A DNA stretch of 64,000 bases from Spirochaetales bacterium (GTDB lineage Bacteria > Spirochaetota > Spirochaetia > Sphaerochaetales > Sphaerochaetaceae). Below the pieces are notes generated by a model that saw nothing but the letters and a program-made list of their open reading frames with translations, was not told the origin of the DNA and ran no database searches. Shown here piece after piece: positions 8,309 through 54,900 of this stretch. The translations under genes were made by a program, and so were the position numbers. The stretch's first letter is position 1, and each line of letters begins with the position of its first letter. The stretch is taken from NCBI GenBank assembly GCA_012838275.1, contig DUPO01000188.1:7623-71622 (forward strand), written 5' to 3'.

Positions 8309-8341
8309 CTGTCCCTCCTGTATGGTACGATCTGAAATCCT

Positions 8342-10722: not shown

Positions 10723-10753
10723 AAAAAATGGGCTCCTCTGATGGAGCCCATTT
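10723..10753 (-). terminator. Rho-independent terminator of the NCS2 permease
   Basis: AAATGGGCTCC-TCTGAT-GGAGCCCATTT, with a poly-U run on the minus strand. Confidence 0.8.
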
Positions 10754-10767
10754 CTCGTTCTTAACGC

Positions 10768-12054: not shown

Positions 12055-12357
12055 CGATGCACTCCTTGCAGATGATTGTCGGTTCTATTCTAGTACAAGA
12101 GTATGGAGTAGTACAGTAAAATCTTTATTTTTGAGTGTTTCGTTACTATTTTAACATTTTTAAATTACAAAATACCTTTAAATTAAAGAGAAAATATGAT
12201 ATATACAGAAGTATTGTAAATTGAAATGATATGATATTGAATTTTTATGTAAATTTAGTTTTTGGACAAATTTCACTAATCCTCCCCCTTGAACTATCAA
12301 TGTAAGATGGTACACTGGGAAGTAAGAACATGTGTTATTCTAGATAAAGGAGGAGAC

Positions 12358-18471: not shown

Positions 18472-19592
18472 ATCGAGACCTATCCGCGATACAGAGGGTC
18501 GTGGTGAAAGTAGGCACGAACCTGCTTTCCACCAAGGACGGAATTGATGAGGGGTGCATTGACCGCATCGCCGGGCAACTTGTCCAGTTGCAGCAGAAGG
18601 GCCTGCAGGTTCTGTTGGTGACATCAGGGGCCATCGGGATGGGGGCCAAGGAGTTGAAGCTGAAAGGTCCTGTCAAGCAGGTCGCCATGCGCCAGGCCTG
18701 TGCCTCTATCGGTCAGCCGCTGCTTATGAGCAGTTATCGAAGGGCTTTCAAGAAGCACGGGGTGCTATGTTCGCAGATATTGCTTACCCGCAAGGAGATG
18801 AACAACCGCCATACCTATGTGAATCTTAGGAACAGCTCCTTTACCCTTTTGGACTTGGGTGTGATTCCCATCTTTAATGAGAACGACACCGTCAGTACTG
18901 CCGAGATAGGTTCGGCCTTTGGCGATAATGACCGCATGAGTGCAATGGTCGCAAGCAAGATTGATGCCGACCTTCTGATCATCCTCACAGATATCAGCGG
19001 GCTCTATACTTCAGATCCCAAGAAAGACCCTAAGGCTGAGCTGATCAGGGATATAGAGATTCTTGACGACGAGATACTTGCCTGTGCAGGCGGTGCGGGA
19101 AGCCTCTTCTCCACAGGCGGCATGAAGACCAAGCTGCTTGCCGCAAAGATTGCTGCTAATGGCGGTTGTGGTTCCATCATAGCCAGTGGGTATGAGCCCG
19201 ATGTTCTGGTCCGCCTGATGGACGGCGAGCCTTTGGGCACGTATATCCATCCCAAGAAGCGCATGAGCCAACGCGAGCGCTGGCTTCTCAACAACTCCCA
19301 CCTCGGGACGATAGTGGTCGACGAAGGGGCGAAGAAAGCCCTCCTCTCCCACAAAAGCTTGCTGCCCAAAGGGGTGGTGCGGGTTGAAGGCGGGTTTGAA
19401 GCCGGGGATGTTGTTGAGATCTGTACGACAGACGGCAAGGCTTTTGCCAAAGCCGCGCCTTATCTCAACAGTACGGACATAGCAAAAATCGCAGGACATG
19501 AGAGCCGTGACATCCTCTGCCTGCTGGGTGAAGGACATAAGGACGTACTGTTCCGTCCGGAGGATTTGGTGCTGTTAGACGATGACGAGTAA
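18468..19592 (+). CDS. proB: Glutamate 5-kinase with C-terminal PUA domain
   Basis: VVKVGT, NENDTVS, FGDNDRMSA, TGGMKTKL. Confidence 0.95.
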   Translation: MNRDLSAIQRVVVKVGTNLLSTKDGIDEGCIDRIAGQLVQLQQKGLQVLLVTSGAIGMGAKELKLKGPVKQVAMRQACASIGQPLLMSSYRRAFKKHGVLCSQILLTRKEMNNRHTYVNLRNSSFTLLDLGVIPIFNENDTVSTAEIGSAFGDNDRMSAMVASKIDADLLIILTDISGLYTSDPKKDPKAELIRDIEILDDEILACAGGAGSLFSTGGMKTKLLAAKIAANGGCGSIIASGYEPDVLVRLMDGEPLGTYIHPKKRMSQRERWLLNNSHLGTIVVDEGAKKALLSHKSLLPKGVVRVEGGFEAGDVVEICTTDGKAFAKAAPYLNSTDIAKIAGHESRDILCLLGEGHKDVLFRPEDLVLLDDDE

Positions 19593-20496
19593 CTACAGGA
19601 TATACAGAAGACGCCTCGACCTGGGATCGCGGATGAATCAGCTGCACAATACAGAGCAGCTGGCCATCGGTATCCTCGACACAGGCACACCCGAACAGCT
19701 TATTGAGAATCTCAGCTGGTATGTGGAGAATATGAATTATGCACTGCATGTTGTAACCCAAGAGGGTAGGTTGGACATAACGGAGATGCAAGAAGCGTAC
19801 AAGGAGGTCACATTCCTTGTATTCCCTTCCTCAGCCTTTACCGGAGAGATGGTCAATGCTGTGGCTAATGAGTGTCAGACCAGCTACTTCCTCATTGTCC
19901 GCAGCGATCTGCTTCTGGTGCGTTTTGACGGGGCGGCTCTTTTTTCGCTCATGGGGCAAAAAGAGGCTCCCGCAGCCATTGCCTCCCTCATAGCCAATAT
20001 GGACAAGGAGATAGTTCCGACGATACGCTCGCCGTATCTTGAGGAAAAAAAACTGGAACCCCGTTCCCATTTCCCCACAGCCGACCTTCCCGGAGGAGAG
20101 AATACGCTCTATCCGGTCATGGCTCTAGGCATGTATGACCGTGCACTCTTCCAACGCCTTCGAGGGTTCGATGAAAAGATTCACAGTGAGTATTTTCAGG
20201 TCCTCGATTGGGGGATAAGGTGTTACCTGTTGGGACATACGGTGAAAGCATCCTCCCATCTTCTGATGCAATTCACTGACCGCCAGTCAGTCATTGAGGA
20301 CCGCAGTGAAAGTGAAGGCTACAAACGTTGCTACACCAAGGCTCTCTCTGTCCAGCAGTTCAAAGGGAAAAACATCATACGCAAGTATAAGGGGTTCGTT
20401 GACAAGGATGCCCTTTCTGATGAGGTGAAAAAACGATTGCTCTGGCTGCAGAAGAGTGATTTCTTCCAACTGCTCGAACATTGGGAGAAAACTTGA
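19582..20496 (+). CDS. Hypothetical protein with degenerate GT2-like fold
   Basis: Tiles between proB and the amidase. MYDRALFQRLRGFDEKI...LDWGIRCYLLG resembles the GT2 C-terminal region. Confidence 0.6.
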   Translation: MTSNYRIYRRRLDLGSRMNQLHNTEQLAIGILDTGTPEQLIENLSWYVENMNYALHVVTQEGRLDITEMQEAYKEVTFLVFPSSAFTGEMVNAVANECQTSYFLIVRSDLLLVRFDGAALFSLMGQKEAPAAIASLIANMDKEIVPTIRSPYLEEKKLEPRSHFPTADLPGGENTLYPVMALGMYDRALFQRLRGFDEKIHSEYFQVLDWGIRCYLLGHTVKASSHLLMQFTDRQSVIEDRSESEGYKRCYTKALSVQQFKGKNIIRKYKGFVDKDALSDEVKKRLLWLQKSDFFQLLEHWEKT

Positions 20497-32306: not shown

Positions 32307-32482
32307 GCTGATATCCTAACAGGGAAGGGGTGAGCTTGCAACTGCTAGTGGTGTTGTCAAAGGTTTTTTGGTATGCTGTTGGTAAGACCCTTGATCTCGT
32401 GCTATAAAGCAGTATCGAATATTTCCAGGGTGGGGTTTTTGAGGGCATGAGCCAGCTGAGATCACACCCTCAAGGCAGATGC

Positions 32483-33556
32483 ATGAAACGATTATTACTT
32501 GTACTTTTTTGTATGGCGATTTGCATCACCTCTCTGTTTGCCTATCCTCCCTTTGTCCAGACAGAGAGAGGTACGATAGCGATGGGCTCGGCTGGGGTTG
32601 CACTTTCCACATCCCCTTCATCGTTTTTAGCAAACCCTGCATTGCTCTTCATCAGGGAACGGGAGAAGAGCCTGTTTACCCTCAGCGGTAGTTACATCGA
32701 CTCGATACGACCCGCTTACTTTCAAAATAATTTACCCAATCCGCTGCTTCAGACACCTTTCACACATTTAAGTGTATCCTTCAGTGGTAACAATGCCGCC
32801 CTTACAATTCAAAATCAGGTTTCCCTCTACGATCGCAATGATGATAACGTCGGTTACACACGTTATCACGGTCTTACCCACACCCTTTTGCAGCTTGACT
32901 GGGCTACTGGCCGCTCTTTCTTCGCTTTCGGCTTGAATGTTAAGGCGCTTTCAGTATCAGAGCGGAATCCGCTGGATATAAGCCACGATCGGATCCTATC
33001 CGACTTTATTGTCCAAACCTCCTTGGGGCGGTATGAACCTCTGGAAAATGAGGCCTTCATCTCAGTAGGCATCGGACTCTTGCTTGACTATGACTGGTTC
33101 AAGATGGGGATCACCAGTGACACCTTTGCATTTGCCCTGGGCAACGAATCCCTGCAATTCAACGCAGATGAGATTTACAAGTCCCTTGACTGGGGCTTCT
33201 CATTCAGCACCCCCACCTATGACTCTAACAACCTGCTCCATCTTCTGAAGATCCAGGCGGTTTGGGACTTTGTCGATCTGGGATCGGAAGAGAGCAGGGA
33301 GATCAGGCTGGGCTTTGATGTGAAGCTGCAGCTTTTGCCAACCTGGTCAGTGAGCTTCAAAACCGGGTATAGGGAGAAGAAGTACCTCCCTAGTGACCTG
33401 TTACGGTTCAATTTCAACAATGGGACGCATACGCTAGGCCTCTCTGCCCAACTGGGAACCTTTACCCTCGATTTGGCTTTCGAGATTCCCATCAGTTGGT
33501 ACCTAGGGGATACGGATGCCGTCGAAGGGGTACTGGCACTCAGCTTCTCCATCTGA
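32483..33556 (+). CDS. Putative outer-membrane beta-barrel protein (FadL/PorV/UPF0164-like)
   Basis: Signal peptide, AMGSAGVA...LANPALL N-terminal motif, alternating beta-strand pattern, C-terminal LSFSI. Confidence 0.6.
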   Translation: MKRLLLVLFCMAICITSLFAYPPFVQTERGTIAMGSAGVALSTSPSSFLANPALLFIREREKSLFTLSGSYIDSIRPAYFQNNLPNPLLQTPFTHLSVSFSGNNAALTIQNQVSLYDRNDDNVGYTRYHGLTHTLLQLDWATGRSFFAFGLNVKALSVSERNPLDISHDRILSDFIVQTSLGRYEPLENEAFISVGIGLLLDYDWFKMGITSDTFAFALGNESLQFNADEIYKSLDWGFSFSTPTYDSNNLLHLLKIQAVWDFVDLGSEESREIRLGFDVKLQLLPTWSVSFKTGYREKKYLPSDLLRFNFNNGTHTLGLSAQLGTFTLDLAFEIPISWYLGDTDAVEGVLALSFSI

Positions 33557-37572: not shown

Positions 37573-38482
37573 TCCTTTTGAGTCTGTAGTTTTTCTGTTC
37601 GGACCCACGGGCGTAGGGAAAACTGAACTTCTTTTGGATCTTGATCCTGAGAAGTATTCCGTGGTCAATGCCGACTCCATCCAAGTGTACAGACACTTGG
37701 ATATCGGGTCGGCCAAGGCCAACACCGAAACACTTCAAGCAATTAAGCACTATCTTATCGACGTTTATGACCCCTGGCAGCAATTCAGCGTAGGGGATTT
37801 CGTCGCGTATGCCGATGAGGCATGCCGTGAGATCCACGCACAGGGGAAAATCCCTGTCCTCAGTGGTGGCACGGCTTTCTATTTCAAACATTTTTACTTT
37901 GGCCTGGCTGAAGCTCCTCCCAGTGATGAAGGTGTGCGTCAGCGCTTGGCTGAAGAGATTAGAGTTCGTGGGGATGCTTGGGCATTTGAGCGCCTGACTC
38001 AAGTTGACCCTCTCTCCGCCAAACGGATACACCCTTCGGACATGTACAGGGTCTCGCGTGCCTTGGAAGTCTATGAAGGTTCGGGCAGGCCCTTAAGCAG
38101 CTACAAGATACCCTCTACCCCACGAAACGGGATGAAGCCTCTCATACTCGGTCTCTGGCGGGAGGGGGATGAGCTGAAACAGCGAATAGCATTGAGGGTC
38201 GGTCAGATGTTCGCTGAGGGTTTGGTCGATGAGATACGCCGTCTTATCGAGATGGGGGCATCTGAGAGCTGGCCGGGCCTGCAAGGCATTGGCTATAAGG
38301 AGTTCTTCCAGGCGAGGAAGAGCGGTGAGGCCTCCCTGTCCATGGTACGGGAACAGATCGACCGCAACAGTCGCTTCTATGCAAAGCGGCAGATGACCTT
38401 CTTCAAGAGCTTTGCCTCTGTACATTGGATGAATCCGAAAGATAAAAGAGAGATACTCTCCCTTATTGAGGGATATCGATAG
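37538..38482 (+). CDS. miaA: tRNA dimethylallyltransferase (start uncertain)
   Basis: GPTGVGKT, ADSIQVY, DIGSAK, GGTAFY, IGYKE, YAKRQMTF. Confidence 0.93.
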   Translation: MKSTSKPLTCSNPFESVVFLFGPTGVGKTELLLDLDPEKYSVVNADSIQVYRHLDIGSAKANTETLQAIKHYLIDVYDPWQQFSVGDFVAYADEACREIHAQGKIPVLSGGTAFYFKHFYFGLAEAPPSDEGVRQRLAEEIRVRGDAWAFERLTQVDPLSAKRIHPSDMYRVSRALEVYEGSGRPLSSYKIPSTPRNGMKPLILGLWREGDELKQRIALRVGQMFAEGLVDEIRRLIEMGASESWPGLQGIGYKEFFQARKSGEASLSMVREQIDRNSRFYAKRQMTFFKSFASVHWMNPKDKREILSLIEGYR

Positions 38483-39947
38483 CTGTCGTCTCTTTGCGGT
38501 AGGTAGGTACCTTGAGGCTCCCCAGCCTGCGCAGGGTCCTGTTTTCAAGGGAGGTGATCTCAAGCCATCCCCGTTTGCTGGGCTCTATCCTAAAATATTG
38601 CACCTGTTCATACCTGAAAATAATCAGTTCGCCCTCCTCGGCAATGGCACCCTCCTGATCTTCGAAATATGGGAAGGGGGAGTAAAGTATGCTGCTCACC
38701 TCGTAGTCAGTAGTATTGATCGCCCTGATGGTGACGTCGGTAATTCCATAGAGGAAAGTCCCTTCCAGCAGTGGCGGCCTGCCACTCCCTATCCAGGTGT
38801 TGGGGTCTATCTGTGTGTCGATGCCCTCATAGGCCTTGCGTGTCTGGCGTGAGACAAATAGGTTGGTCACCTCCATGGCCGCAGGGTTTTTGGCTTTCTT
38901 TCCTAAAGAAGCTTCCATCTTCTGCAGATCAAGTTCATTCTGCGCGGTATAGTACTCTTGGATGACCTGTTCAGCAGCCATTCCTGCCGTATATGGGGGA
39001 GCAAGGGCATCTCTGATCCTACCGGTGGTAAACCAGACTACAAGCGTGACCGCTACAACGACGCTGATAACTATCCAACCCTTTTTTCTCCAGAAAACAC
39101 TTCTGTCCGACCGTTTCTTCTGATCCTCCAAAAATGGTGCGCTGGAGCCTACATTTCTCATATCTTCATAGCTAGGGGCCTCAGTACGGTTCTTTAGGTT
39201 CCATTCGAGGCCCTCTGTAGCCTCTACAAACCAAAAGAGAGCTTTCTGGGTTTCTAGGTTTGCACTGGCTTCACGCTGCTTTGACAAGCTTAAGCGTAGG
39301 GTTGCGTCGATAAATGCCATGCTTTTCTGTTCCAGCCCCACTGAGCTCAAACTGAGAGGAAGAGCCCTAAACCCATCCTCCCTGGTCTCTTTGGCCCCGA
39401 AAGGGGGAAAGCCCATCGCGGCAAAGTAGAGCAGCTGGGTCATCTGGTCACAGAGTGAGAAGGGGGTATGGATACCATGGTGCACCCATGCTGACAGCAT
39501 GCTGTAACGTACATCATCTTCGGCACAGGAAGAGAAAAGGTCCGCCAGATCCTGACTTAGGATAAGGAATCCCCCCTCCTCAATACCCCATATCCTCCAG
39601 ATGGGGAGGGTATTGCTGGAAAGGTCGAGGAAGGTGAGGGGAAGCATCTCAAGGGCTTGGGCTAGCTCCCTGATCAGGGGGAGGGCATCGCTTCGCTTGG
39701 TTGTTGCAATATCGGTGATGGGAAAGAGGTTGATGCTTTCGAAGTAGAGACAGCGCTGGTCATCCGCCACGGCAAACCCTTCCCAATACCATTTTTTGGG
39801 TTTTTCTCCCGGGACAATGATGTATCCGGGGCTTTTCTGCCCCTGCAGCAGATAGGAGGGAAGGCTCACTCCCTTGGGACCTATAGCGATGCAGGTATAG
39901 GGTTTCTGTTCGATGACAGATGTGAAGACTCTAGGGGAAACAACCAT
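38463..39947 (-). CDS. Single-pass membrane protein with pseudokinase-like N-terminal region
   Basis: RBS and ATG immediately after the amrB-like stop. LLYFAAMGFPPF motif, one TM (GWIVISVVVAVTLVVWF). Confidence 0.65.
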   Translation of the reverse strand: MVVSPRVFTSVIEQKPYTCIAIGPKGVSLPSYLLQGQKSPGYIIVPGEKPKKWYWEGFAVADDQRCLYFESINLFPITDIATTKRSDALPLIRELAQALEMLPLTFLDLSSNTLPIWRIWGIEEGGFLILSQDLADLFSSCAEDDVRYSMLSAWVHHGIHTPFSLCDQMTQLLYFAAMGFPPFGAKETREDGFRALPLSLSSVGLEQKSMAFIDATLRLSLSKQREASANLETQKALFWFVEATEGLEWNLKNRTEAPSYEDMRNVGSSAPFLEDQKKRSDRSVFWRKKGWIVISVVVAVTLVVWFTTGRIRDALAPPYTAGMAAEQVIQEYYTAQNELDLQKMEASLGKKAKNPAAMEVTNLFVSRQTRKAYEGIDTQIDPNTWIGSGRPPLLEGTFLYGITDVTIRAINTTDYEVSSILYSPFPYFEDQEGAIAEEGELIIFRYEQVQYFRIEPSKRGWLEITSLENRTLRRLGSLKVPTYRKETTAIDIPQ

Positions 39948-39948
39948 T

Positions 39949-40803
39949 TCAGACCTCTTTCCTTTTTGCACTGGCATGCCAGACAATACGTTCTTTTGTT
40001 ATGAATTCATGGGGAATTCGGGCAAAGGGTTCACCCTCTGTGCTAAAGGAGGTAAAAACCCACCCGTTATTTCCCCATTTCTGATAGCGCAAGGCTTCAA
40101 AGGCAGCTATGCCACAACTGCTGATCTGCTTTGATCGTAAGCTCTCAAGCAGAGGCTCTCCATCTTCCAGCAACCTGACAAGCGTAGAGGCATGCTCTGT
40201 TGCCAGCTTTGATGGGAGGTTTGCATTCAGGTTTGCAGAGAGTACGAACAGGGTCTCTGGAACCAGGGCTGTTATCTTCTCCAGAATTGAGGCATATGTC
40301 CTGCACTCCGTTGCATCGTGGGTATTGGTGAGCATAGGCAGCACCGGCACCCCCTTTGCATAGGAATCTGTCAGGGGGAGGGTAAGTTCGACCGCAGGCT
40401 CCTCAATGAAGTAGCTGTTCTCCGCCTTGATATCATCACCGAAGAGCGAGAGCAGGGTATTCCGTATCTCTGTAGCATAGTGAATATCGGTATGGGGCAG
40501 CCTGATACCCTCTCCTGTCGGGACGAAGAGGAAGTGCGGCTTGTCCACATCCAACGCCTCCTGGTGCAGTGGAGCGAGTATTACAACCAGTTTTGGCTGC
40601 AGGGAGGAAACGGCAAGGAAGCTTTTATGCAACAGCTTCAGGACATGCGTATAGCTGGCATGGGGGGTGAGGATCGCAGAGGGGAGGCTTGATAGCTTAT
40701 CCCCTTTGTCTGTCTGTCCGATCCGTATTGCGCACTGGGCGGAGAGGGTCTCCCTGTCATGAGGGTAAAATATGGTGTGATGTTCACTTTTATGCATCTT
40801 CAT
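39949..40803 (-). CDS. MEMO1 / AmmeMemoRadiSam protein B-like (degenerate)
   Basis: IFYPHD, ILTPHASY, LAPLH, SCG motifs of the Memo fold. Confidence 0.7.
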   Translation of the reverse strand: MKMHKSEHHTIFYPHDRETLSAQCAIRIGQTDKGDKLSSLPSAILTPHASYTHVLKLLHKSFLAVSSLQPKLVVILAPLHQEALDVDKPHFLFVPTGEGIRLPHTDIHYATEIRNTLLSLFGDDIKAENSYFIEEPAVELTLPLTDSYAKGVPVLPMLTNTHDATECRTYASILEKITALVPETLFVLSANLNANLPSKLATEHASTLVRLLEDGEPLLESLRSKQISSCGIAAFEALRYQKWGNNGWVFTSFSTEGEPFARIPHEFITKERIVWHASAKRKEV

Positions 40804-43634: not shown

Positions 43635-46600
43635 TTATGGCTTTACGAGGACATCTTCTGCTGTGTCGGCGCTGAGAATCCTATCCATCTCGTCTAGGAC
43701 GCCTTGGGTAAGGGGGCCAAAGTCAAACATTGGCCTGAGACGGGCAAACAGTGGACGCACGAAATGTCTCAACTGGCTCTTGTCCTTCTCCAAGGTGCTT
43801 TTGCTTTGAAGGGTGAGAACGGTAACTTCTGAAGGAGAGTAATAGGTTCCAACCTCCTTGAATCCGAACTTCTTGTAGAGTTTTATGGTCTTCAGGTCGT
43901 CGGCAAATACATCGATGACTAGGTTCTCGACCCCCTGGCTGCGGGCGAGCAGGAAGACCAGAATGATGAGACCGATGGAGGCGGAGGTGTTTCTCATCTC
44001 CGGCAGGACCGCAAGGCGGATAATTTCAGAGCAGTTGCGTGATTGCAACACCGATTCAATGTCGAAATACTCGGAGATGGGCAAGGGCCAGAAATGCTCG
44101 CTTGTCATCAGGGAGACAGTCCCGACCGGATGCAGCCCCTTGAAGGCCAGGATGTGCATCGCCTTCTCGTCCTCTTGCCGGTGGATGGACTCCTCTAGGT
44201 AGCCTTTTTCCCCGACCAGCACCTTCCTTTGGATAAAGAACACATCATTCATCCCTGCCTGATCATTGACCAGAGCGAATCGAATGATGTCCCTTCTCTC
44301 ATCATTGGCTGGGAATATAATGGTAAATTCCGTGCCTACACCAATTTCGCTTTTCACTCTGATCCTCCCTCCCATCTTGTCTACAATATTATAACAGTTG
44401 GAGAGCCCGAGGCCTGTGCCCGAACCCGGTGCCTTTGTAGTGAAGAAAGGGGTGAATATCTGGTTGATATCCTCGTCTGCGATACCGCACCCGGTATCTG
44501 CGATCCTGATGGTTACCAGCCCGTCACTCTCTATGCAGGAGAGTGTGAGCGTCCCATCACCGTCCATGGCTTGGATGGCGTTTACAATGAAGTTCAAGAA
44601 GAGCTGTTGCAGCTTGCCTTCGTTTGCTTCAAGGAAGGGAAGGGCGTGGTAGTTCCTTCTGACATCGATATTCTGGGAGTCTATGCCCCGCAATGCTAGT
44701 CTGAGGGAAAATTCCAGTATCCTTACGAGTTCTACGGATTGGTCCTCTTTGGCCTCGTCATTCTCTTCTTTTCGAGAGTAGAGAGCAAGCTCTCTTATGA
44801 CATCCGCGGCTGCCTTTGAATAGGAGAGAATATCCTCTAGATATTCGTGGTGGGCATGGTTTTGCTCCACTTCACTAAGCATGATCTCTGTGGTGCCGAG
44901 GATCCCTGCAAGCGGATTGTTCAGCTCATGGGCGATTCCGGCAGCCAAGGTTCCGATACCTGCCATCTTCTCAGTCCTTACCAGCTCCTCTTGCAGTTTT
45001 TTCTGTTCGGTAATGTCGTTTATGATCTCAATGAATACATTCTTGGCATTCTCAGGTACCTTCACATTATGGAACTGAAAGGAGTAGATCTTATCCTTGA
45101 TCGTAGTCTCCGTCTCCTCCACAGCTCCGTTGTGCAGGCAGTCGAGGGCCTGGCAGAACGGACAGGGCCTCGAACGCTGGAAGAAGGCTCGATAGCATTT
45201 GCTTCCTATGAGGCAGTTCTTGTTGTTGCCGAAGAATGCGACAGCAGCTGTGTTTGCTTCCTGGATGGTGAAGTCGATGTCGATCAGGCATACGGGGGAA
45301 GCTATGCCGTTGAAGATGGCCTCCATCTTGTTCTTGCTTATGGTAAGCTCATCTCCCTGTTCCTTGAGCCGTTCGAAGGAAAGGGCGTTTTCCAGTGAGA
45401 GGGAACTTTGGGCAGCGAGGATTTCAAGCGCTTCAAGCTCGATCGGGCTGATAAGGGATTTGGTATAGTCATATCCGATGAGAATGTATCCTGCGATTTG
45501 TTTCCTGAAGACAAGGGGTATGAGCACATCGGCAGGAGGGAGTTGGGCGCTGACTTCGAAGCGCTGCTCGTCTGGGTTCACATTGAGTATTGAAGAGGTG
45601 TTTTCAAGCCTGAGTTTATGGAGTTTCTCCTCTACGATCGGGGGGAAGTTGAAGAGTACCTCATCTCCCTCCTGCAAGGAGGTCGGGCATTTGCTGTTGG
45701 CCACCATGGTGAATTCCCCGTTACTGTCCAGGCGTTTCACTACAAATATGACCCATTCGGTTTTCAGTCCGGAACTCAGGTTTTTCACCACCTCGTCACC
45801 CAGTTCCTTGAGATTGACTATTGTCGTCAGCTTATGGCTGAGATTCTTGATGGTTGTCTGGTAGGGGTGCCGTTTGGGGATGATGACGCTGTCGACCAGA
45901 TATACGAGCAGGTTCCTTACCGGATGGATGATTATGGCAGTCACCACTCCGAGGATGAGTGTGAGTTGCAACGTGTTTCCTGTGAACAGATTGCTGTTGA
46001 ATAGCTGGATTACGAATATGATGATGTAATATGATACTGAGGCTACGATGATCAGGATGGTGGAGTAGATGATGTTGATGGCAATGCGTGAGTAGCTGAT
46101 CAGCTTGTACCTGTAGATGGTGTAGAAGAGCAACAGGGCATTGATGGTGGCTGCAAATATGTCGATGGGGTATTTTCCCAGTTTAGGGAAAATGTTCATG
46201 AAGATACCGATGAGCATGACCACTACTCCGATAAGGGGAAGCAGCAGGTTTTTGTGGGTCTTCTTCAGCGGTTTGTATTTGGTCCCGAAGAGAAGGATGA
46301 TGAGGGTGAGTATCAGATAGGCGTAGCTGATCGAGTAAGCCGAAATGTATCCCGGTGCCAGGTTGTAGTAGAAAGCCCCATCAGCGGTGAAGCCTGCGGA
46401 TTGCACGATATTACCGGTGAAGTTGAGGATCATGAGGGGGATGATCAGGAGATAACTTATGGCGATGAATATCCTGATGGACCGTTTGCGTATTTCCAGC
46501 ATATCAACGATGAAGTTGCTCAGGGCGAAGGGTACTGATACCAACCCTATGAGCATGACCCTATTCCAGAAGATAGGTGTCATGAAGCCGCTGTTGAGGT

Positions 46601-46763
46601 GCATCATCATCGAGCCGAAACTCCAGATGGAGACAAAGACCATATAGAGCTGGAATGACCAGTAGAATCCATCCTTCTTATACTGCATGAAACCGAACAC
46701 AGCAAAAAACACATAGAGTATAAAAGCCACTGCAGGTATGATTGTGGATATGTCAATGATCAT
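43635..46763 (-). CDS. Sensor histidine kinase: multi-TM (HisKA_7TM-like)-GAF-PAS-HisKA-HATPase plus C-terminal FeeM/LuxI-like GNAT domain
   Basis: H-box AHELNNPL, N-box NAIQAM, G1 DTGCGI, F-box PFFTTK, G2 GTGLGLS. A further ~220 aa follow with VGTVSL, EIIRLAV, LYKKFGF. Confidence 0.9.
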   Translation of the reverse strand: MIIDISTIIPAVAFILYVFFAVFGFMQYKKDGFYWSFQLYMVFVSIWSFGSMMMHLNSGFMTPIFWNRVMLIGLVSVPFALSNFIVDMLEIRKRSIRIFIAISYLLIIPLMILNFTGNIVQSAGFTADGAFYYNLAPGYISAYSISYAYLILTLIILLFGTKYKPLKKTHKNLLLPLIGVVVMLIGIFMNIFPKLGKYPIDIFAATINALLLFYTIYRYKLISYSRIAINIIYSTILIIVASVSYYIIIFVIQLFNSNLFTGNTLQLTLILGVVTAIIIHPVRNLLVYLVDSVIIPKRHPYQTTIKNLSHKLTTIVNLKELGDEVVKNLSSGLKTEWVIFVVKRLDSNGEFTMVANSKCPTSLQEGDEVLFNFPPIVEEKLHKLRLENTSSILNVNPDEQRFEVSAQLPPADVLIPLVFRKQIAGYILIGYDYTKSLISPIELEALEILAAQSSLSLENALSFERLKEQGDELTISKNKMEAIFNGIASPVCLIDIDFTIQEANTAAVAFFGNNKNCLIGSKCYRAFFQRSRPCPFCQALDCLHNGAVEETETTIKDKIYSFQFHNVKVPENAKNVFIEIINDITEQKKLQEELVRTEKMAGIGTLAAGIAHELNNPLAGILGTTEIMLSEVEQNHAHHEYLEDILSYSKAAADVIRELALYSRKEENDEAKEDQSVELVRILEFSLRLALRGIDSQNIDVRRNYHALPFLEANEGKLQQLFLNFIVNAIQAMDGDGTLTLSCIESDGLVTIRIADTGCGIADEDINQIFTPFFTTKAPGSGTGLGLSNCYNIVDKMGGRIRVKSEIGVGTEFTIIFPANDERRDIIRFALVNDQAGMNDVFFIQRKVLVGEKGYLEESIHRQEDEKAMHILAFKGLHPVGTVSLMTSEHFWPLPISEYFDIESVLQSRNCSEIIRLAVLPEMRNTSASIGLIILVFLLARSQGVENLVIDVFADDLKTIKLYKKFGFKEVGTYYSPSEVTVLTLQSKSTLEKDKSQLRHFVRPLFARLRPMFDFGPLTQGVLDEMDRILSADTAEDVLVKP

Positions 46764-46820: not shown

Positions 46821-47327
46821 ATGGGATTAATCAAACTGTTTCTTATAGGAGCCACCGGATATTTGCTTGCAGGACTCTACGATGTGGCTATTTTGTATGA
46901 CAAGCCCTTGGTGAGGAAGCTCCTCTATGTAGGGTTTTTCATCACGGCAGTACCGTACCCGGTGATTTTTTTCACCAGGGTCTCGCCCCTGCCCGGCTTT
47001 GCCGCCTGGATCGTCTTTCCCCTGGTCATACCCTTTGCCCTGCTGCTGGTCTATTCGGTATTGGTGGAGATCGCACTGCATTCGGGAAGCAGTGGGAAAC
47101 TTTACCAAGGGGGTACCTATAAAATATCTAGACACCCCGGTTTCATATGGTATACAGTGATCAATATGTTGGTTTCTATATACTATTGGAACTATCATGT
47201 TACTATGCTTTTTCTAGGACTCACCCTATGCAATCTTGTCCTGATAACTGTGGAGGACCGGATACTTTTCCCTAGGATGTTTGATGAGTACAGGGAGTAT
47301 AGAAGAAGCACGCCATTCATTCTGTAG
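46821..47327 (+). CDS. ICMT/PEMT-like membrane methyltransferase-family protein
   Basis: 4-5 TM helices, GTYKISRHPGF, EDRILFPRMFDEYREYRRSTPF. Confidence 0.7.
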   Translation: MGLIKLFLIGATGYLLAGLYDVAILYDKPLVRKLLYVGFFITAVPYPVIFFTRVSPLPGFAAWIVFPLVIPFALLLVYSVLVEIALHSGSSGKLYQGGTYKISRHPGFIWYTVINMLVSIYYWNYHVTMLFLGLTLCNLVLITVEDRILFPRMFDEYREYRRSTPFIL

Positions 47328-47350
47328 ATACACCTTTGGAGATACTTGCA

Positions 47351-48376
47351 ATGGATAAACACATAATAACGACCGATGATGACCAGGCAATACGCAAGGT
47401 CCTACAGATATTGCTGCGAAAGGAAGGGTATCGGGTTACCGTATGCTCCAGCGGTGATGAGTTGCTCTCCATCCTCAAGAAAGATTCCCCTACAGTGGAT
47501 CTGGTGCTTTTGGACATAAAGATGCCGGGTCTATCCGGTATGCAGGTCCTTGAAGCCCTGCGACGCAACTACCCACGCATCCCAGTCGTCATGCTTACAG
47601 CATTCAATGATCTTGAAACCGGCATGAAGGCGATTCGCATGGGTGCGAGCGATTACCTCACCAAGCCTGTCCGCCGTGAAGTGCTGGTCGAGTGTGTCAG
47701 CCGGGTGCTCAATGCGACGGCCCTCAAGCAGGACGAGGTAGCCGAGATGGTCCATTCACAAGCTCAGCAGAAGAAGTTGGAGGACCAGCTTCAGAGCGCT
47801 CTTATCGCCTTGGAGAGTACGACGTTGGCTACCCTTGAAGCATTTACTGAAACAATCGAACAGAAAGACCCCTATACCAAGGGGCATTGCAGTCGTGTCC
47901 GCACCATCTCCCTGGCCATAGCACAGGCCCTTGATTTTACAGATGAGAGGCTGCAGATCCTTGAGGGGGGTGCGTTGTTGCATGATATCGGCAAGATTGG
48001 AATTCCTGAAGAGATATTGAACAAGGCGGCCAAACTGACAAAGAGCGAGTATGACATCATACGGGAACACCCTGCCTCAGGAGAGAGGATAATCAAGCAT
48101 ATCGATATGTTCCAGGCGTACCGTCCCATCATCCGCAGCCATCATGAGCGGATGGACGGCAAAGGCTACCCGGACGGGCTGAAGGGGGAGGATATCCCCG
48201 TCGATGTCCGCATCGTATCCCTTGCAGATGCATTCGACGCGATGACCACCAGCCGGGCATACCGCTCTGCCCTGCCCACTGAGTTTGCAGTCGAGGAACT
48301 GAAGCTTAATACCGGCACCCAGTTCGACCCCGATCTGGTGAACCTGTTCATAGAGCGGGAGATTTTCCTCCTCTAA
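47351..48376 (+). CDS. REC-HD-GYP response regulator (RpfG-like cyclic dinucleotide phosphodiesterase)
   Basis: TDDD, LLDIKMPG, TKP receiver residues. HTxRV-equivalent HCSRV, HDIGK, HHERMDGKGYP, ADAFDAMT. Confidence 0.92.
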   Translation: MDKHIITTDDDQAIRKVLQILLRKEGYRVTVCSSGDELLSILKKDSPTVDLVLLDIKMPGLSGMQVLEALRRNYPRIPVVMLTAFNDLETGMKAIRMGASDYLTKPVRREVLVECVSRVLNATALKQDEVAEMVHSQAQQKKLEDQLQSALIALESTTLATLEAFTETIEQKDPYTKGHCSRVRTISLAIAQALDFTDERLQILEGGALLHDIGKIGIPEEILNKAAKLTKSEYDIIREHPASGERIIKHIDMFQAYRPIIRSHHERMDGKGYPDGLKGEDIPVDVRIVSLADAFDAMTTSRAYRSALPTEFAVEELKLNTGTQFDPDLVNLFIEREIFLL

Positions 48377-48400: not shown

Positions 48401-49156
48401 TCAAGAGAACAGATAGCGAGGTCCTCGTCTGCCGGATACCTCCGTACACTCCACATTGAAGACCCGTTCAATGGCCTCGGACCGCAGCAACTCAGCCGGT
48501 GTCGCATACGTAGCGACCTTACCCCCATCCAACAGGCATATGTGATCTGAAACCTCAAGTGCCGAGCCTAGGTCATGCATCACCGCTATGATGCACTTGC
48601 CCTGGTGTTTGAGAGTTTTCAACAGGTGGAGTATCTCCCTCTGCACTGCAAGGTCCAGATACGTCGCAGGCTCGTCCAAGGCGATGTAGGGCGTGTCTTG
48701 GGCAAGGGCCATGGCAAGGTATGCCTTCTGCCTCTCCCCTCCGCTTATTCGGAGAAGACTTTTGTGCCGCAGGGCATTCAGGCCCATGGTTTCCAATGCC
48801 CTTTCCACCAGGAGGTGGTCCTGTTCGTCCCTCTTTTTTGAAAAACCCAGATGAGGGTACCGGCCATGGGAAACCAATGAGTGGACGGTGCAGTTCGAGT
48901 CTAGGTGATCCTGGCTCAGGAACGCCACTTTTTTTGCCCACTGCCTACGGGTATATTCCTGTTGGCCCTTGCCATCCAGGACCACGCTTCCCGAAAGGGG
49001 GCTGAGCAGGGAACAGGCGCTTTTGAGCAGAGTGGACTTTCCTGTCCCGTTCTTACCTATTATGGTTGTAATCTCTCCGGGACGAAAGGTGAGGGAGACA
49101 TCGCAAACTACCTCCCTGCCCCTGTACCCTACACTTATGTTCTTGAGTTCAAGCAT
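48401..49156 (-). CDS. FecE/BtuD-type ABC ATP-binding protein
   Basis: GKNGTGKS, ISGGE, LDEPATYLD. Confidence 0.9.
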   Translation of the reverse strand: MLELKNISVGYRGREVVCDVSLTFRPGEITTIIGKNGTGKSTLLKSACSLLSPLSGSVVLDGKGQQEYTRRQWAKKVAFLSQDHLDSNCTVHSLVSHGRYPHLGFSKKRDEQDHLLVERALETMGLNALRHKSLLRISGGERQKAYLAMALAQDTPYIALDEPATYLDLAVQREILHLLKTLKHQGKCIIAVMHDLGSALEVSDHICLLDGGKVATYATPAELLRSEAIERVFNVECTEVSGRRGPRYLFS

Positions 49157-50171
49157 GGCAATCGCTTCTTTTTCGTTTGAAGAGCAGGAAGAGAAAGAAG
49201 GGGCTCCCTAAAAACGAAAGGACTATCCCCACAGGCAGTTCATACGGGCTGAAGACAGTCCTGGCCACCAGATCACATCCAAGGGTGATGATGGCACCTG
49301 CCAGTGCGGTCAAGGGAAGTGAGAGGGCACTCTCCTCTCCAACTAGAGAGCGCATCATGTGGGGTACTACCAATCCGACAAATCCTATCAGGCCGCACAT
49401 GCTGACCACGCTCGCACTGAGCAGGGATGCGAGCATCAGGGCCAGAAAACGGGTTCTGCCCACTTCAAGGCCCAAGGAGAGAGCCACTTCATCCCCCAAG
49501 GCGAGGATGTTCAAATCCTTGCCTAGCAAAAAAGAGAGGAGGACTCCCCCTATTATGTAAGGGGAGGTTTGCGACACTTGTGAGAAGGGGACATGGGCGA
49601 ATGAACCGATGAGAAAATCCAACCTGCCCATCTGTGTGTCCGGTCTGAGGGTGAGCAGGGTGTCGGTAAAGGAGCCCAGCAACGAAGAGACGGCGACCCC
49701 TGCCAGGATGATGGTGAGGCGGGTCGAACCCGAACGGCGTGCCAAGGCATATACCAGTATGCTCGATCCCAGCGCACCGACAAAAGCAAACAGGGTCCCC
49801 AGGGGTATCAGATGAGGGAAAAAGGCTGAAGCAAGCAGGGCGAACAGCCCGGCTCCTGAGTTGACTCCGATGATGGAAGGTCCTGCAAGGGGATTGTGCA
49901 GCACTTTCTGAAGAAGGTGGCCGGAGAGAGCTAGGGCCATACCACAAAATAGTGCTGCAAGTGTCCTGGGGAGTCGGATATGACGCACTATCCTGTATGC
50001 TGCACTGAGCCTGTCTTTCCCTTGAAGGATAAGAAGCAGGCCTTTGAGCCCTATCCGTGTCGAACCGATGGAGAGACTTAGGGCGAAGAGGCTGCATAGG
50101 CAGAGGATGAGCAGGCCCAGAAGCATCGCTTCTTTTTTCTTATCGGGCGAGGAGCTTTGCAAGATAGGCAT
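49149..50171 (-). CDS. FecCD/BtuC-family ABC permease
   Basis: IRLPRT, NPLAGPSIIGVNSGA, IGFVGLVVPH, ELPVG. Confidence 0.9.
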   Translation of the reverse strand: MPILQSSSPDKKKEAMLLGLLILCLCSLFALSLSIGSTRIGLKGLLLILQGKDRLSAAYRIVRHIRLPRTLAALFCGMALALSGHLLQKVLHNPLAGPSIIGVNSGAGLFALLASAFFPHLIPLGTLFAFVGALGSSILVYALARRSGSTRLTIILAGVAVSSLLGSFTDTLLTLRPDTQMGRLDFLIGSFAHVPFSQVSQTSPYIIGGVLLSFLLGKDLNILALGDEVALSLGLEVGRTRFLALMLASLLSASVVSMCGLIGFVGLVVPHMMRSLVGEESALSLPLTALAGAIITLGCDLVARTVFSPYELPVGIVLSFLGSPFFLFLLFKRKRSDCHA

Positions 50172-51141
50172 AACTTTCCCCCCATCGGTTGTTTGGTTTG
50201 TAATGGAACAGGTTTTTGGGCAAGAGGTGGTAGCGTCCGCCCTTTACCGCTTTGAGGGCTGCAAAAGCCTTGTTTGTAGCCAAAAGATGATCCATGGTCG
50301 CTTGTGCGGCTTGTTCGTCACCCATGGGTATGACAAAAATATAGGAGGGTTCTTCCCAGACAATGCTCTCCATGCTCAACTCCTCAAGCAACGAAGGGTG
50401 CAGGTCGGTGAGGTTGGTATACCCCAGTTCATCCAGCATGGTGGAGACCATGTTGTCTCCCCCCTTTGCCCTGATTTTTGTGGAGTATGAACGGAGCAGG
50501 AGGTAGGTCCGGTTGTTTGTCTGAGCAGGATCCTTGTGATTTGCCAAGATACGCTCAACACCCTTCAGGGTATCCAATCCGTTTGTCTGATAGAGGTCCT
50601 TGCGCCCTGTGAGGGTGGTGCACGCCTGTAGCATGAAAAGGTAATCCTCCACTCTCTCCACATGGAAGTACGCATGTGGTATTCGGCACTCTGTGAGCAG
50701 GGGCGATAGGGCGAGATGGGAGGGGATTTCGGTGGTGAGCAGGACAAGGTCAGGCTCCAGGGCGATGATCGCTTCGCTGTTGGGGTCCTTTATTGTTCCG
50801 ATGGTCCGTACGTCTTCGCTAAGGGTGAAGGTCTTTCGGGTGTGTGAATCGGAGGTGGTTCCAACCAGGGAGCCTCCGCTGAGTAACCAGGTCTCGGCAA
50901 AGGATGCGCTGAGGGCGATCACCCGCTCAGGTCTATGGGTAAGTGTGACTTCCCTCCCTAATGAATCTGTAAATCGGAGAGGATCGGTCTGCTTGCCCGC
51001 AATCTGGTCGGGGTGGGAACCTCTCTCTTTGCACCCTGCCAAAAGCAAGATGCAAAGAGAGAGCAGGAGTACTGTTTTACCTGTTTCCAGTGCGAAAAGG
51101 ATACCGGTAGGCACCCCCCTGCAAGTTCCCTTATCAGCCAT
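50140..51141 (-). CDS. Iron-complex/cobalamin-type ABC substrate-binding lipoprotein (start uncertain)
   Basis: LLAGC lipobox, FTDSLGREV, PERVIALS, EAIIALEPDLV. Confidence 0.85.
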   Translation of the reverse strand: MADKGTCRGVPTGILFALETGKTVLLLSLCILLLAGCKERGSHPDQIAGKQTDPLRFTDSLGREVTLTHRPERVIALSASFAETWLLSGGSLVGTTSDSHTRKTFTLSEDVRTIGTIKDPNSEAIIALEPDLVLLTTEIPSHLALSPLLTECRIPHAYFHVERVEDYLFMLQACTTLTGRKDLYQTNGLDTLKGVERILANHKDPAQTNNRTYLLLRSYSTKIRAKGGDNMVSTMLDELGYTNLTDLHPSLLEELSMESIVWEEPSYIFVIPMGDEQAAQATMDHLLATNKAFAALKAVKGGRYHLLPKNLFHYKPNNRWGESYAYLAKLLAR

Positions 51142-52051
51142 GGCTGATAATCTCCTCCTTATGCAGGAGCAGGTCATCTGACAGGAGCTTCTGTTCGACT
51201 TCAGCCATTCCCAAGCGTTCGATAACTGTAGAGAAGCGCTCGCCTTGCTTCCCCTCGTCCTTAAAGAGCAACAGGGATTTTTCTATCAGGTTGAGAACCT
51301 CCTCCTTTGTAAAAAGTGTGCTCATGGGTGTCCCCATGCGTATCTGTTTTCCCCACCGGCCACCCAGGAATACCTTGTAGAGTGTCCGCTCGGCCCTAAT
51401 CGCACCGAAAGGGCAGGCTTTGATGCACCTCCCACAGTTGTTGCAGGAGGCCCTTTCAATGCAGGGGACCTCTGCTGCTGTGCGCCGGATTGCCTTTTGA
51501 GGGCAACCCTCCTCTGCTGCGCAGAGCCTGCACTGTTTGCAGATGCTTGCATCCAGCAAGGGTACCCTCTGTCCTACGATGCCAAAATCGTTGAGTTCGG
51601 GCTTTATGCAGTTGTTCGGGCATCCGCCGACACCTATCTTGAATTTGTGGGGGAGGTTCACAGATCGGTACCCTTCATAGAAACGGTTGTGAATTTCAAG
51701 GTTGAGGGCATTGGTGTCATACAGGCCGAAGACGCATGTGCTGCCTTTACAGCTGGTCACCGGACGCACTTTTGCACCGGTGCCTCCTGTCATCAGACCC
51801 GCTGCATGAATGTGTCGCTTGAATGGTTCAATCAGGTCATAAGGGATGTGGGGAAGTTCAACGGTCATTCGACTGGTGAAACTGACCTTCGAATCCCCGT
51901 ACAATTTTGCGGCTTCCCCAATTGCTATGGTCTGCTCGGCACTAAGGGATCCTCCGACCGGGATGATCCTTGCAGAGAAGCTCTCAGTTCCTCTGTTGTG
52001 TAAGAACCCTTCAGCTTTCAGGGTGCGTATCGCTGTTGCTGTCAATTTCAT
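51134..52051 (-). CDS. Sulfite/nitrite reductase-like protein with 2x[4Fe-4S] ferredoxin insert (AsrC/Dsr-like)
   Basis: FTSRMTVE, SCKGSTC, LPHKFKIGVGGCPNNC, CKQCRLC, CNNCGRCIKACP. GAGGAG RBS. Confidence 0.85.
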   Translation of the reverse strand: MKLTATAIRTLKAEGFLHNRGTESFSARIIPVGGSLSAEQTIAIGEAAKLYGDSKVSFTSRMTVELPHIPYDLIEPFKRHIHAAGLMTGGTGAKVRPVTSCKGSTCVFGLYDTNALNLEIHNRFYEGYRSVNLPHKFKIGVGGCPNNCIKPELNDFGIVGQRVPLLDASICKQCRLCAAEEGCPQKAIRRTAAEVPCIERASCNNCGRCIKACPFGAIRAERTLYKVFLGGRWGKQIRMGTPMSTLFTKEEVLNLIEKSLLLFKDEGKQGERFSTVIERLGMAEVEQKLLSDDLLLHKEEIISHG

Positions 52052-53151: not shown

Positions 53152-54900
53152 ATGGCAAATAAGAGTACTGCTCCAACGCCTTGGGATTTTCTAGATGAGT
53201 TTCGCGGTAAGGTATTTACCGGCGAGTGGCCTACAGTTAGCCAGATGTTTGACATCTCTGTTATCAGATATCCGGATAACAAGTGTTTTTCGGCTTTTGT
53301 GCCCATAAAGGAGACTCTTACCTATACCGAAGTCCAAGCGTATGTGAAGGGCCTGGCCAACTATATGCTCTCCAAAGGGGTCAAATCGGGAGATAAGATT
53401 GCGGTAACCGGCAAGAACAGCCCCGAATGGGCTATTGCCTATCTGGCCATCCTCGATGCCGGGGCTATCGTAGTCCCCCTGGACAACACCCTCAACGACA
53501 AGGATATGGGAAAGCTTATGTCCTTTGCAGATGTGAAATACATGTTTGCCGACCTTGATCGCCTGCAGGATTTCGACAAGGAGGGCAAGCTGGGTATTGC
53601 TGGAAAGGTCAGCTTGGAACCGACTGATGAGTTTACCTTTATCCTTGATGCGCAGGAAAAGACAAGGCAGGAGCGGACGGAAGCCAAGGCTTCCGACACT
53701 GCAGCTATCCTCTTTACCAGTGGTACCACAGGGACTCCTAAGGGTGTTATGCTCAGCCATAGCAACCTGGTCGCAGACTCTTACCTTTCACAAAACAATA
53801 TGGAAGTGCTTTCCACCGATGTGTTTTATGCAATTCTCCCCATCCATCATGCCTATACGATGATGGCTGTCTTTATTGAGGCCATCAGCACTGGGGCATC
53901 CATTGTATTTGGCAAGAAACTTGTTATCAGCCAAGTGCTCAAGGAGCTCAGGGAAGGGGAAGTTACCATGTTCCTCGCCGTTCCCATGCTGTTCAACAAG
54001 ATGATCGGAGGCCTGATGAGTGGGGTCAGGGAGAAGGGCATCATTGTCTACGGCCTGATCCGTGGCATGATGAAGTTCTCCGGCCTGATAAAGAAGGTGT
54101 TCAAGGTGAACATCGGCAAGAAGATGTTCGGCTTCCTTCTGAAGAAACTTTCCTTGGAAAACAACCGTATCTGTATCTCTGGCGGCGGGCCCCTCCCTGC
54201 CTCCACGTTCAAGATGTTCAACGAGCTCGGTATCGATTTTGTGCAGGGGTACGGGCTTACCGAAACCAGCCCCATCACGCACCTCAACCCGACTGATGCT
54301 TATATAGAGACCTCTGTCGGCAAGGTAGTCGCCAATACCCAGGTGAAGATCGTCGATCCTGATGCAAATGGGAATGGCGTCATCCATATCAAGGGACCCA
54401 TGGTCATGCAGGGCTATTACAACAACCCCGAAGCAACTGCTGAGATCCTGAAGGATGGATGGCTCAATACCGGAGACGTAGGTCATCAGGATGCGAATGG
54501 ATATCTCTACCTCACCGGAAGAGCTAGGAACATCATTGTCACCGACGGCGGCAAGAACGTATTCCCTGAAGAGATTGAGGATCACTTCCAACTGTATGAA
54601 GAGATCGAAACTATCTGCGTATGCGGCTACATAACTGATGTGAAGCATCAGAGTGAAGGTATCCGCGCCATTGTCTATCCTGCTGAGAAGTATACCCAGG
54701 CCATGGAAAAAGAGCATGGCAAGGATGCGGCGAAGGCTCTCATCGAGAAGCGTATCGAGGCTATCGTAAGTGAGGTCAACAAGGAGTTGCAGGCTTACAA
54801 GAAGGTCACCCGCGTAACAGTGGTCGATGAGCCCCTTGAGCTGACAAGCACCAAGAAGATCAAGCGTTTCATAGTTGAAGAGAAGTATCGGGACAAGTAA
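53152..54900 (+). CDS. Long-chain fatty acid--CoA ligase (AMP-binding)
   Basis: FTSGTTGTPKGVMLSH, QGYGLTET, GWLNTGDVG, GRARNIIV. Confidence 0.9.
   Translation: MANKSTAPTPWDFLDEFRGKVFTGEWPTVSQMFDISVIRYPDNKCFSAFVPIKETLTYTEVQAYVKGLANYMLSKGVKSGDKIAVTGKNSPEWAIAYLAILDAGAIVVPLDNTLNDKDMGKLMSFADVKYMFADLDRLQDFDKEGKLGIAGKVSLEPTDEFTFILDAQEKTRQERTEAKASDTAAILFTSGTTGTPKGVMLSHSNLVADSYLSQNNMEVLSTDVFYAILPIHHAYTMMAVFIEAISTGASIVFGKKLVISQVLKELREGEVTMFLAVPMLFNKMIGGLMSGVREKGIIVYGLIRGMMKFSGLIKKVFKVNIGKKMFGFLLKKLSLENNRICISGGGPLPASTFKMFNELGIDFVQGYGLTETSPITHLNPTDAYIETSVGKVVANTQVKIVDPDANGNGVIHIKGPMVMQGYYNNPEATAEILKDGWLNTGDVGHQDANGYLYLTGRARNIIVTDGGKNVFPEEIEDHFQLYEEIETICVCGYITDVKHQSEGIRAIVYPAEKYTQAMEKEHGKDAAKALIEKRIEAIVSEVNKELQAYKKVTRVTVVDEPLELTSTKKIKRFIVEEKYRDK

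Follow-up and report, generated by a model that had tools for sequence, protein, structure and literature searches.

Why should a sensor kinase carry a FeeM-like acyltransferase domain at its C-terminus? To our knowledge, the last part of a histidine kinase is nearly always either its ATPase domain or a set of phosphorelay domains. The question is raised by a stretch of 64,000 nucleotides from a Spirochaetales bacterium of the Sphaerochaetaceae (GenBank assembly GCA_012838275.1, contig DUPO01000188.1, forward strand, positions 7,623 to 71,622), here called the window and numbered from its first nucleotide. On its minus strand, an uninterrupted open reading frame (ORF) at 43635..46763 encodes, by translation of the window, a kinase-GNAT protein of 1042 amino acids with the domain order 7TM(HisKA_7TM)-GAF-like-PAS-HisKA-HATPase_c-GNAT (Table 1). 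A sequence-only reading, made without database searches, had singled out the interval 43635-44290, which corresponds to residues ~825-1042 and the stop codon, as a FeeM-type N-acyltransferase domain fused behind the kinase. Judging from sequence, structure models and analogy with characterised systems, we give a somewhat better than even chance to a bifunctional inner-membrane protein in which a competent 7TM-GAF-PAS kinase is joined to an active FeeM-type N-acyltransferase, with putative methylation and cyclic di-GMP (c-di-GMP) output.

A genuine and conserved fusion

An assembly or frameshift error that joined two genes would give the same architecture. Searching with the full-length protein yielded 96 close homologues (39-100% identity, one representative per 90%-identity cluster), and in 94 of these the precomputed FeeM domain (Pfam PF21926) and the kinase domains lie on one continuous protein. 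The fused homologues are mostly ~1020-1055 amino acids long, the remainder being shorter partial sequences. Four independent metagenomes, from biogas, manure, soil and wastewater, have contigs that align to window positions 43400-44700 with 0 differences and 0 gaps, and the junction sequence is present in at least 20 public metagenome runs. The only split homologue, P0059 on locus L012 (3487-6635), is called as two overlapping ORFs, a kinase of 883 amino acids and a FeeM protein of 182, and would speak for two separate genes, but a neighbouring gene on L012 is also fragmented, so the split is most likely a frameshift error. That neighbour is a peptidase/BAAT-like gene in three pieces (389-1412); such errors could mislead domain-architecture surveys. 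The fusion is real and the artefact explanation is scarcely credible: the continuous homologues and the base-identical independent contigs also exclude a missed stop codon, about which the sequence-only reading had been cautious.

The close homologues carry the source names Sphaerochaeta, Sphaerochaetaceae or Spirochaetales, and the automatic database labels of the fused proteins read only 'GNAT family N-acetyltransferase' or 'histidine kinase'. Past these 96, the score falls from 753 to 194 bits and the matches are without a FeeM domain. Searching with the C-terminal domain alone gave 11 matches, three at contig ends and the others on contigs of ~1-1.6 kilobases (kb), which makes them uninformative on stand-alone genes in Sphaerochaeta. 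Cultured carriers of the fused gene are Sphaerochaeta pleomorpha Grapes (WP_014270983.1) and Sphaerochaeta sp. PS, hence experiments are feasible. The Grapes orthologue (P0085) is annotated with 776 amino acids and without the 7TM region; given that the other orthologues have ~1040 amino acids, its start codon was probably called too late.

The kinase part has what is expected of a class I histidine kinase, namely an H-box histidine, N, G1 and G2 boxes and Pfam matches to HisKA and HATPase_c. In an alignment of 44 orthologues (39-86% identity), residues H612, N724, N728, D756, G758, G760, G782, G784 and G786 are invariant. The sequence-only reading had also described a kinase with multiple transmembrane helices and a GAF-like domain, and it was right in this: Pfam GAF, GAF_2 and GAF_3 are recorded in distant orthologues of the window kinase (for example P0096-P0104), and the model has an alpha/beta domain at residues 318-468. 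By region, mean identity is 71% for the GNAT domain, 71% for the dimerization and histidine phosphotransfer (DHp) domain, 65% for the catalytic (CA) domain and 62% for the 7TM region. The GNAT and DHp domains are the most conserved parts, and conservation of the GNAT domain equal to DHp and above CA and 7TM argues for a selected function. In the helical tail beyond the GNAT core, the first helix and a YEK-type motif are also found in stand-alone relatives of the domain, and the FDFG..TQ.V..EM helix is confined to the fused family.

Table 1 Features of the kinase-GNAT gene and of the two genes divergent from it (positions in the window; AF2, AlphaFold2)
Feature	Position	Strand	Residues and basis
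HisKA_7TM membrane sensor region	46098..46730	-	12-222; Pfam PF16927 43.8 bits, cut-off 28.6; seven helices in AF2 model
Two further long helices and GAF-like alpha/beta domain	45360..46088	-	226-468; AF2 helices 226-312, then alpha/beta 318-468
PAS domain	45006..45335	-	477-586; Pfam PAS_9 match 490-586, 28.6 bits, cut-off 27
HisKA/DHp, phospho-acceptor His612	44763..44951	-	605-667; Pfam HisKA 43.9 bits, cut-off 26.9
HATPase_c catalytic (CA) domain with N, G1 and G2 boxes	44307..44621	-	715-819; Pfam 92.9 bits, cut-off 26.4
FeeM-family GNAT acyltransferase domain	43806..44285	-	827-986; Pfam FeeM, AF2, Foldseek, profile alignment
Putative catalytic Glu913 codon	44025-44027	-	Within the FeeM-family GNAT domain
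Conserved helical tail beyond GNAT core, and stop codon	43635..43805	-	987-1042; helices 990-1012 and 1016-1031 (AF2)
Membrane protein of 168 amino acids, putative ICMT/PEMT-superfamily S-adenosylmethionine (SAM) methyltransferase	46821..47327	+	Divergent from kinase gene; weak profile matches
REC and HD-GYP response regulator	47336..48376	+	Pfam Response_reg 105.5 bits, HD_5 135 bits

The C-terminal domain and the FeeM family

Sequence profiles and structure models place the C-terminal domain in the FeeM family, as a divergent member. Pfam FeeM (PF21926) matches residues 854-973 with 35.0 bits when the whole protein is scanned and with 38.4 bits (expectation value (E) 1.4e-9) when the C-terminal 228 amino acids are scanned alone, at a cut-off of 27, and Acetyltransf_1 matches residues 860-968 with 28.8 and 31.7 bits, respectively, at a cut-off of 20.7. 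The AlphaFold2 model of the domain, made with 54 aligned sequences, is a confident GNAT fold (predicted local distance difference test (pLDDT) 87.6, predicted template-modelling score (pTM) 0.84), with the strand-helix order of that fold followed by two long helices. Foldseek comparison with the PDB returns SACOL1063 (5jph; E 8.6e-10, template-modelling (TM) score on the target 0.89), the coenzyme A (CoA)-dependent N-acyl homoserine lactone (AHL) synthase BjaI (5w8e; E 2e-8, TM 0.63), FeeM (2g0b; E 8e-8, TM 0.74) and EsaI (1kzf; E 8e-7, TM 0.57). On the sequence level, a profile covering the domain together with distant relatives matches SACOL1063 (4e-16), YjcF (2e-11) and FeeM (1.3e-7).

Hence, the proposal of a FeeM-type GNAT domain fused after HATPase_c is borne out, well beyond chance resemblance, by a Pfam match above cut-off, the predicted fold, Foldseek and profile alignment, and the peptides quoted for it (DVFFIQRKVLVGEKGY, EDEKAMHILA, VGTVSL, PLPISEYFDI, EIIRLAV and LYKKFGFKEVG) are all in frame past the G2 box GTGLGL. 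The predicted GNAT fold also removes the doubt that the domain might lack one. Not every profile that the sequence-only reading had named for the domain matches: FeeM and Acetyltransf_1 do so above their cut-offs, TIGR03694 and Autoind_synth do not. Membership among the LuxI-type AHL synthases was rejected, given that Autoind_synth is absent among the Pfam matches at E<=1; the likeness to EsaI and BjaI is structural only.

In the profile alignment, the domain has the N-terminal R..V(F/L)V.E.GY motif in common with the YjcF/SACOL1063 type, and the GT(I/V)S motif, a 'GLP(M/I)(D/E)..Y' insertion and the Glu of 'AE(I/V)..(L/F)A' on strand beta-4 in common with FeeM (2g0b). Where the FeeM-type LP(I/M)(E/D)..Y insertion sits, SACOL1063 has a gap. 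Residues R846, E852, G854, Y855, H870, G881, T882, P895, E913, R916 and R924 are invariant in the 44 orthologues. Of these, E913 falls on the Glu in the 'LAEVVQF' stretch of FeeM (E 1.3e-7), which has number 96 in the deposited chain and which we infer to be the Glu95 of the literature. Glu95 is the proposed active site of FeeM, and replacement of the equivalent residue in Nas354 (Glu103Ala) abolished the haemolytic and surface-active phenotypes (PMC4897644). The sequence-only reading had wondered whether a Ser in place of the Arg of the LuxI-type RL motif alters activity. This concern falls away: FeeM itself has Ser at this position, in 'GTISI', and Ser/Thr predominates across the subfamily, so the exchange is no defect.

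The CoA pyrophosphate loop reads R924-N-T-S-A-S here versus RGQGMG in SACOL1063, and R-G-N-I-V-P or R-G-S-I-I-P in distant orthologues. With respect to the canonical acetyl-CoA GNAT motif Q/R-x-x-G-x-G/A, located behind strand beta-4, the Arg is invariant and the two Gly positions are lost. FeeM is likewise without the canonical loop motif.

The domain could instead be a protein lysine acyl- or acetyltransferase that acts on the kinase itself or on the REC-HD-GYP protein encoded next to it, placing phosphotransfer under acylation control. The closest structural neighbour is an acetyl-CoA-dependent GNAT, many N-terminal and protein acetyltransferases are among the Foldseek matches, and the fusion would keep the enzyme beside its presumed protein substrates. 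We nevertheless regard protein acylation as distinctly unlikely: FeeM is the top-scoring Pfam family, the domain has the insertion and Glu specific to FeeM and a non-canonical acetyl-CoA motif, and the conserved methyltransferase partner and the FadL-like channel of relatives, both described below, would be left unexplained.

Neighbouring genes and unfused relatives

The gene for the 168-amino-acid protein starts divergently from the kinase gene across a gap of 57 base pairs (bp), and the REC-HD-GYP gene follows after a further 8 bp. This module of kinase, ICMT-like and REC-HD-GYP genes is found in 5 of 5 orthologous loci, including one with as little as 40% kinase identity. On its other side, the genes vary by locus (folC, a short-chain dehydrogenase or an unknown gene). 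The translation of the REC-HD-GYP gene contains an HHERMDGKGYP motif of the HHExxDGxGYP type and agrees with an RpfG-type regulator. It is likely the cognate regulator of the kinase.

In ICMT, the C-terminal region binds SAM. The 168-amino-acid protein is multi-pass and scores 19.4 bits against PEMT (cut-off 25) and 16.3 bits against ICMT (cut-off 24); among divergent members of its family, weak matches to ICMT are seen in 4 of 4 and to PEMT in 3 of 4, all sub-threshold. Its sole PDB match is to the Methanosarcina ICMT (Ma-ICMT, 4a2n), a weak one (E 0.03) in the C-terminal motif region. Among the residues invariant in the family are R104-H105-P106-G107-F108, E145-D146, F150, P151, F154, Y157 and Y160. 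On these sequence grounds it is probably an ICMT/PEMT-superfamily methyltransferase. A scan for promoters and terminators around the module gave 8 promoters versus 5.7 in shuffles, no better than chance sequence, and was not used.

A gene for an AMP-binding (acyl-CoA-synthetase-like) protein of 582 amino acids lies ~6 kb from the kinase gene (53152..54900, plus strand). Loci L004 and L005 also have such a gene close to the kinase, and L006 and L007 do not. It could supply activated acyl groups, but it is not conserved.

An exhaustive HMMER scan of 1.84 billion representatives gave only 78 proteins at E<=1e-3. Beyond the fused family, the nearest relatives, at roughly 22-34% identity, are stand-alone FeeM-Pfam proteins of ~190 amino acids or fusions to other signalling domains, namely REC-FeeM (P0130) and PilZ-FeeM (P0133). 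Gene order was read from gene tables and tblastn on fetchable contigs only, for relatives of 23-31% identity. A FeeM-like gene, with REC or an unknown N-terminal domain, is followed by a class-I SAM methyltransferase gene of ~220 amino acids and then by a 7TM-GAF histidine kinase gene: the methyltransferase comes next in 6 of 6 loci with downstream DNA, and the kinase after it in 4 of 4. This operon kinase aligns with the window kinase over the 7TM-GAF region (residues 37-481, E 1e-11) as well as over the core. In several of the unfused loci, another two to four HisKA_7TM kinases are encoded, along with REC proteins and a Toluene_X/FadL-like channel of the outer membrane. Scanning genome contigs with a profile of the distant family yielded one metagenome-assembled genome.

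The unfused operons (L008 (1-12870), L010/L011, L014, L017 and L009) form an undescribed family in their own right, in which the FeeM-like protein has an unknown N-terminal domain of ~100 amino acids or a fused REC, and up to four or five extra paralogous HisKA_7TM kinases flank the set.

Together, gene order elsewhere and fusion plus adjacency in Sphaerochaetaceae suggest, on the level of sequence, that three functions are linked, those of FeeM-like enzyme, methyltransferase and 7TM-GAF kinase. The idea of a Rosetta-stone fusion, put forward in the sequence-only reading, thus survives in spirit with other partners: HisKA_7TM/GAF kinases and a methyltransferase take the place of the exosortase.

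The same comparison bears on a further explanation, already raised in the sequence-only reading, in which the GNAT domain is a non-catalytic or slow ligand-binding sensor of acyl carrier protein (ACP)-bound or CoA-bound acyl chains, a gauge of fatty-acid status that tunes the kinase from the cytoplasmic side. A degenerate CoA-pyrophosphate motif, the short linker that joins the domain to CA (~8 residues in the full-length AlphaFold2 model) and a module without a conserved ACP or exporter gene would all suit such a sensor. Yet the catalytic Glu and its surrounding motifs are invariant across 39-86% identity, stand-alone relatives in methyltransferase operons fit a small-molecule pathway better, and the characterised NAS-PilZ fusions are active enzymes (PMC4897644). 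We consider a pure sensor role unlikely.

Finally, the kinase could be of the PrsK type, fused to an exosortase-associated N-acyl amino acid synthase and reporting on the PEP-CTERM/exosortase system, a link that the sequence-only reading had drawn. The layout of multiple transmembrane helices, GAF and kinase is indeed like that of PrsK, but the PrsK model TIGR02916 scores 92.9 bits versus a cut-off of 300, with residues 587-818 on model positions 459-679, which is the kinase core only. TIGR03694, the exosortase-associated synthase, gives no match to the C-terminal domain at E<=1. Pfam scans of 48 proteins across the 64-kb window found no exosortase/EpsH family at the thresholds used, and no exosortase is among the called genes of four orthologous loci or in the loci of unfused relatives. 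With both model cut-offs failed and no exosortase family in the window or related loci, an exosortase reporter was rejected as very improbable, and the link falls with it.

What the Pfam scans of the window do show are genes for purine catabolism, ABC transport, peptidoglycan, tRNA and sugar utilisation. A purine-catabolism cluster (1350..14109) comprises an amidohydrolase, xanthine-dehydrogenase-like flavin adenine dinucleotide and molybdenum-cofactor subunits, a carbamoyltransferase, a xanthine/uracil permease and an adenine deaminase. In L006 it directly flanks the kinase module and in the window it lies ~30 kb off, so relatives differ by a rearrangement of this region. Two paralogous ABC uptake operons of the iron-siderophore/cobalamin type (Peripla_BP_2, FecCD and ABC_tran) are located at 14113..16987 and, on the minus strand, at 48401..51177. 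ORFs without a Pfam match are found at 38463..39986 (minus strand, 507 amino acids), 32447..33556 (plus strand, 369 amino acids) and 19582..20496 (plus strand, 304 amino acids), the first of which shares synteny in L004 with Memo-like and NFACT genes.

A proposed route and its meaning

The substrate of ICMT enzymes, a lipidated amino acid whose carboxylate they methylate, is chemically similar to the one proposed here. In the bifunctional reading that we prefer, the FeeM-type domain would transfer, at the membrane, a fatty acyl chain to an amino acid or a comparable amine. The donor is probably acyl-ACP, as for FeeM, because of the non-canonical CoA-pyrophosphate loop and the analogy with that enzyme. 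The adjacent ICMT/PEMT-like membrane methyltransferase would then methylate the free carboxylate of the acyl product, a role that the soluble class-I methyltransferase would take in the unfused relatives. Since the enzyme sits on a CA domain that moves, the conformation of the kinase and the activity of the acyltransferase may be coupled. The kinase, in turn, would phosphorylate the adjacent REC-HD-GYP regulator and so change c-di-GMP hydrolysis. The lipid product could be either a ligand of the protein's own 7TM/GAF sensor, following autoinducer logic, or a regulated output.

Several points weigh against this reading. The FeeM score of the domain exceeds its Pfam cut-off by a mere ~11 bits, and the nearest neighbour in both sequence and structure is the acetyl-CoA GNAT SACOL1063 (TM 0.89; 4e-16) rather than FeeM, which makes the proposed donor and acceptor provisional. 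The ICMT/PEMT assignment of the 168-amino-acid protein lies below the Pfam cut-offs, and the Sphaerochaeta module has no conserved gene for ACP, acyl activation or export. The unfused operons stem from just about 6 loci of unclassified metagenomic bacteria, and since the methyltransferases of the two lineages are non-homologous (ICMT/PEMT-like versus class-I), a common pathway is an argument from analogy. The full-length AlphaFold2 model (pLDDT 73.6, pTM 0.39) has an unreliable inter-domain geometry and permits no conclusion on how GNAT and CA or the dimer are arranged.

Compared with FeeM, the window domain has the GNAT fold, a Pfam score above cut-off, the GT(I/V)S motif, the GLP(M/I)(D/E)..Y insertion, the beta-4 Glu and the missing canonical acetyl-CoA loop in common. 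In contrast, FeeM is a stand-alone, soluble protein in a biosynthetic cluster with its own ACP, and the window domain ends a membrane histidine kinase, has only ~15% identity to FeeM in structural alignment and has an additional conserved tail of helices. The SACOL1063/YjcF-type GNATs (5jph, 1q2y) give the best profile and structural match and share the N-terminal R..VFV.E.G motif and core fold, but are without the FeeM-type LPxE insertion and have a canonical RGxGxG CoA loop, which is degenerate in the window domain. PrsK (TIGR02916) together with a TIGR03694 synthase offers the same kinase layout with a FeeM-superfamily enzyme in the same context, but the cut-offs and the lack of exosortase/PEP-CTERM genes nearby set the window apart, as does its lineage, Spirochaetota and not Proteobacteria.

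Three systems parallel the arrangement in function. In Xanthomonas, RpfC keeps RpfF in check by binding to it, a physical tie analogous to covalent fusion. The Rpf/diffusible signal factor system (RpfF, RpfC and RpfG; PMC3744752) likewise has one module made up of a synthase for a lipid signal, a sensor kinase in the membrane and a REC-HD-GYP protein, but RpfF has a crotonase fold, RpfC is a hybrid kinase with REC/HPt, and there is no homology to the window synthase domain or sensor region. In the Phc system of Ralstonia (PMC8578825), the SAM methyltransferase PhcB makes methyl 3-hydroxymyristate, which the co-encoded kinase PhcS senses, paralleling the sets of FeeM-like enzyme, methyltransferase and 7TM kinase; no GNAT step exists in Phc and the likeness is functional. 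Nas343 and Nas354, two-domain NAS-PilZ proteins that produce N-acyltyrosine (PMC4897644), are FeeM-type synthases covalently joined to a c-di-GMP-tied signalling domain, a tie that in the window takes the form of the adjacent REC-HD-GYP protein and also appears in the PilZ-FeeM relative P0133. Their partner is a PilZ receptor, whereas that in the window is a whole sensor kinase, with the signalling module ahead of the synthase.

A more specific version, which we hold only tentatively and think rather doubtful, has the kinase-GNAT protein both make and perceive an autoinducer, a membrane-soluble N-acyl amino acid (methyl ester), with the HD-GYP c-di-GMP phosphodiesterase as the readout. If true, this would be a new class akin to quorum sensing, with signal production and its 7TM sensor kinase joined covalently, and the unfused operons of FeeM-like enzyme, methyltransferase and 7TM-GAF kinase, with their paralogous kinases and FadL-like channel, would be its multi-component form. 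N-acyl alanine methyl esters are known bacterial products for which the genes have not been found (PMC11580390).

Full-text literature searches found no description of the kinase-FeeM fusion or its gene sets. A conserved biosynthetic acyltransferase on the CA domain of a kinase would be an unusual coupling of sensing to small-molecule synthesis, and would tie the family of N-acyl amino acid synthases to two-component signalling, c-di-GMP signalling and a methylation step. What N-acyl amino acids do in bacterial physiology is not yet clear, and the fusion and the conserved gene order in two lineages provide a testable hypothesis for this.

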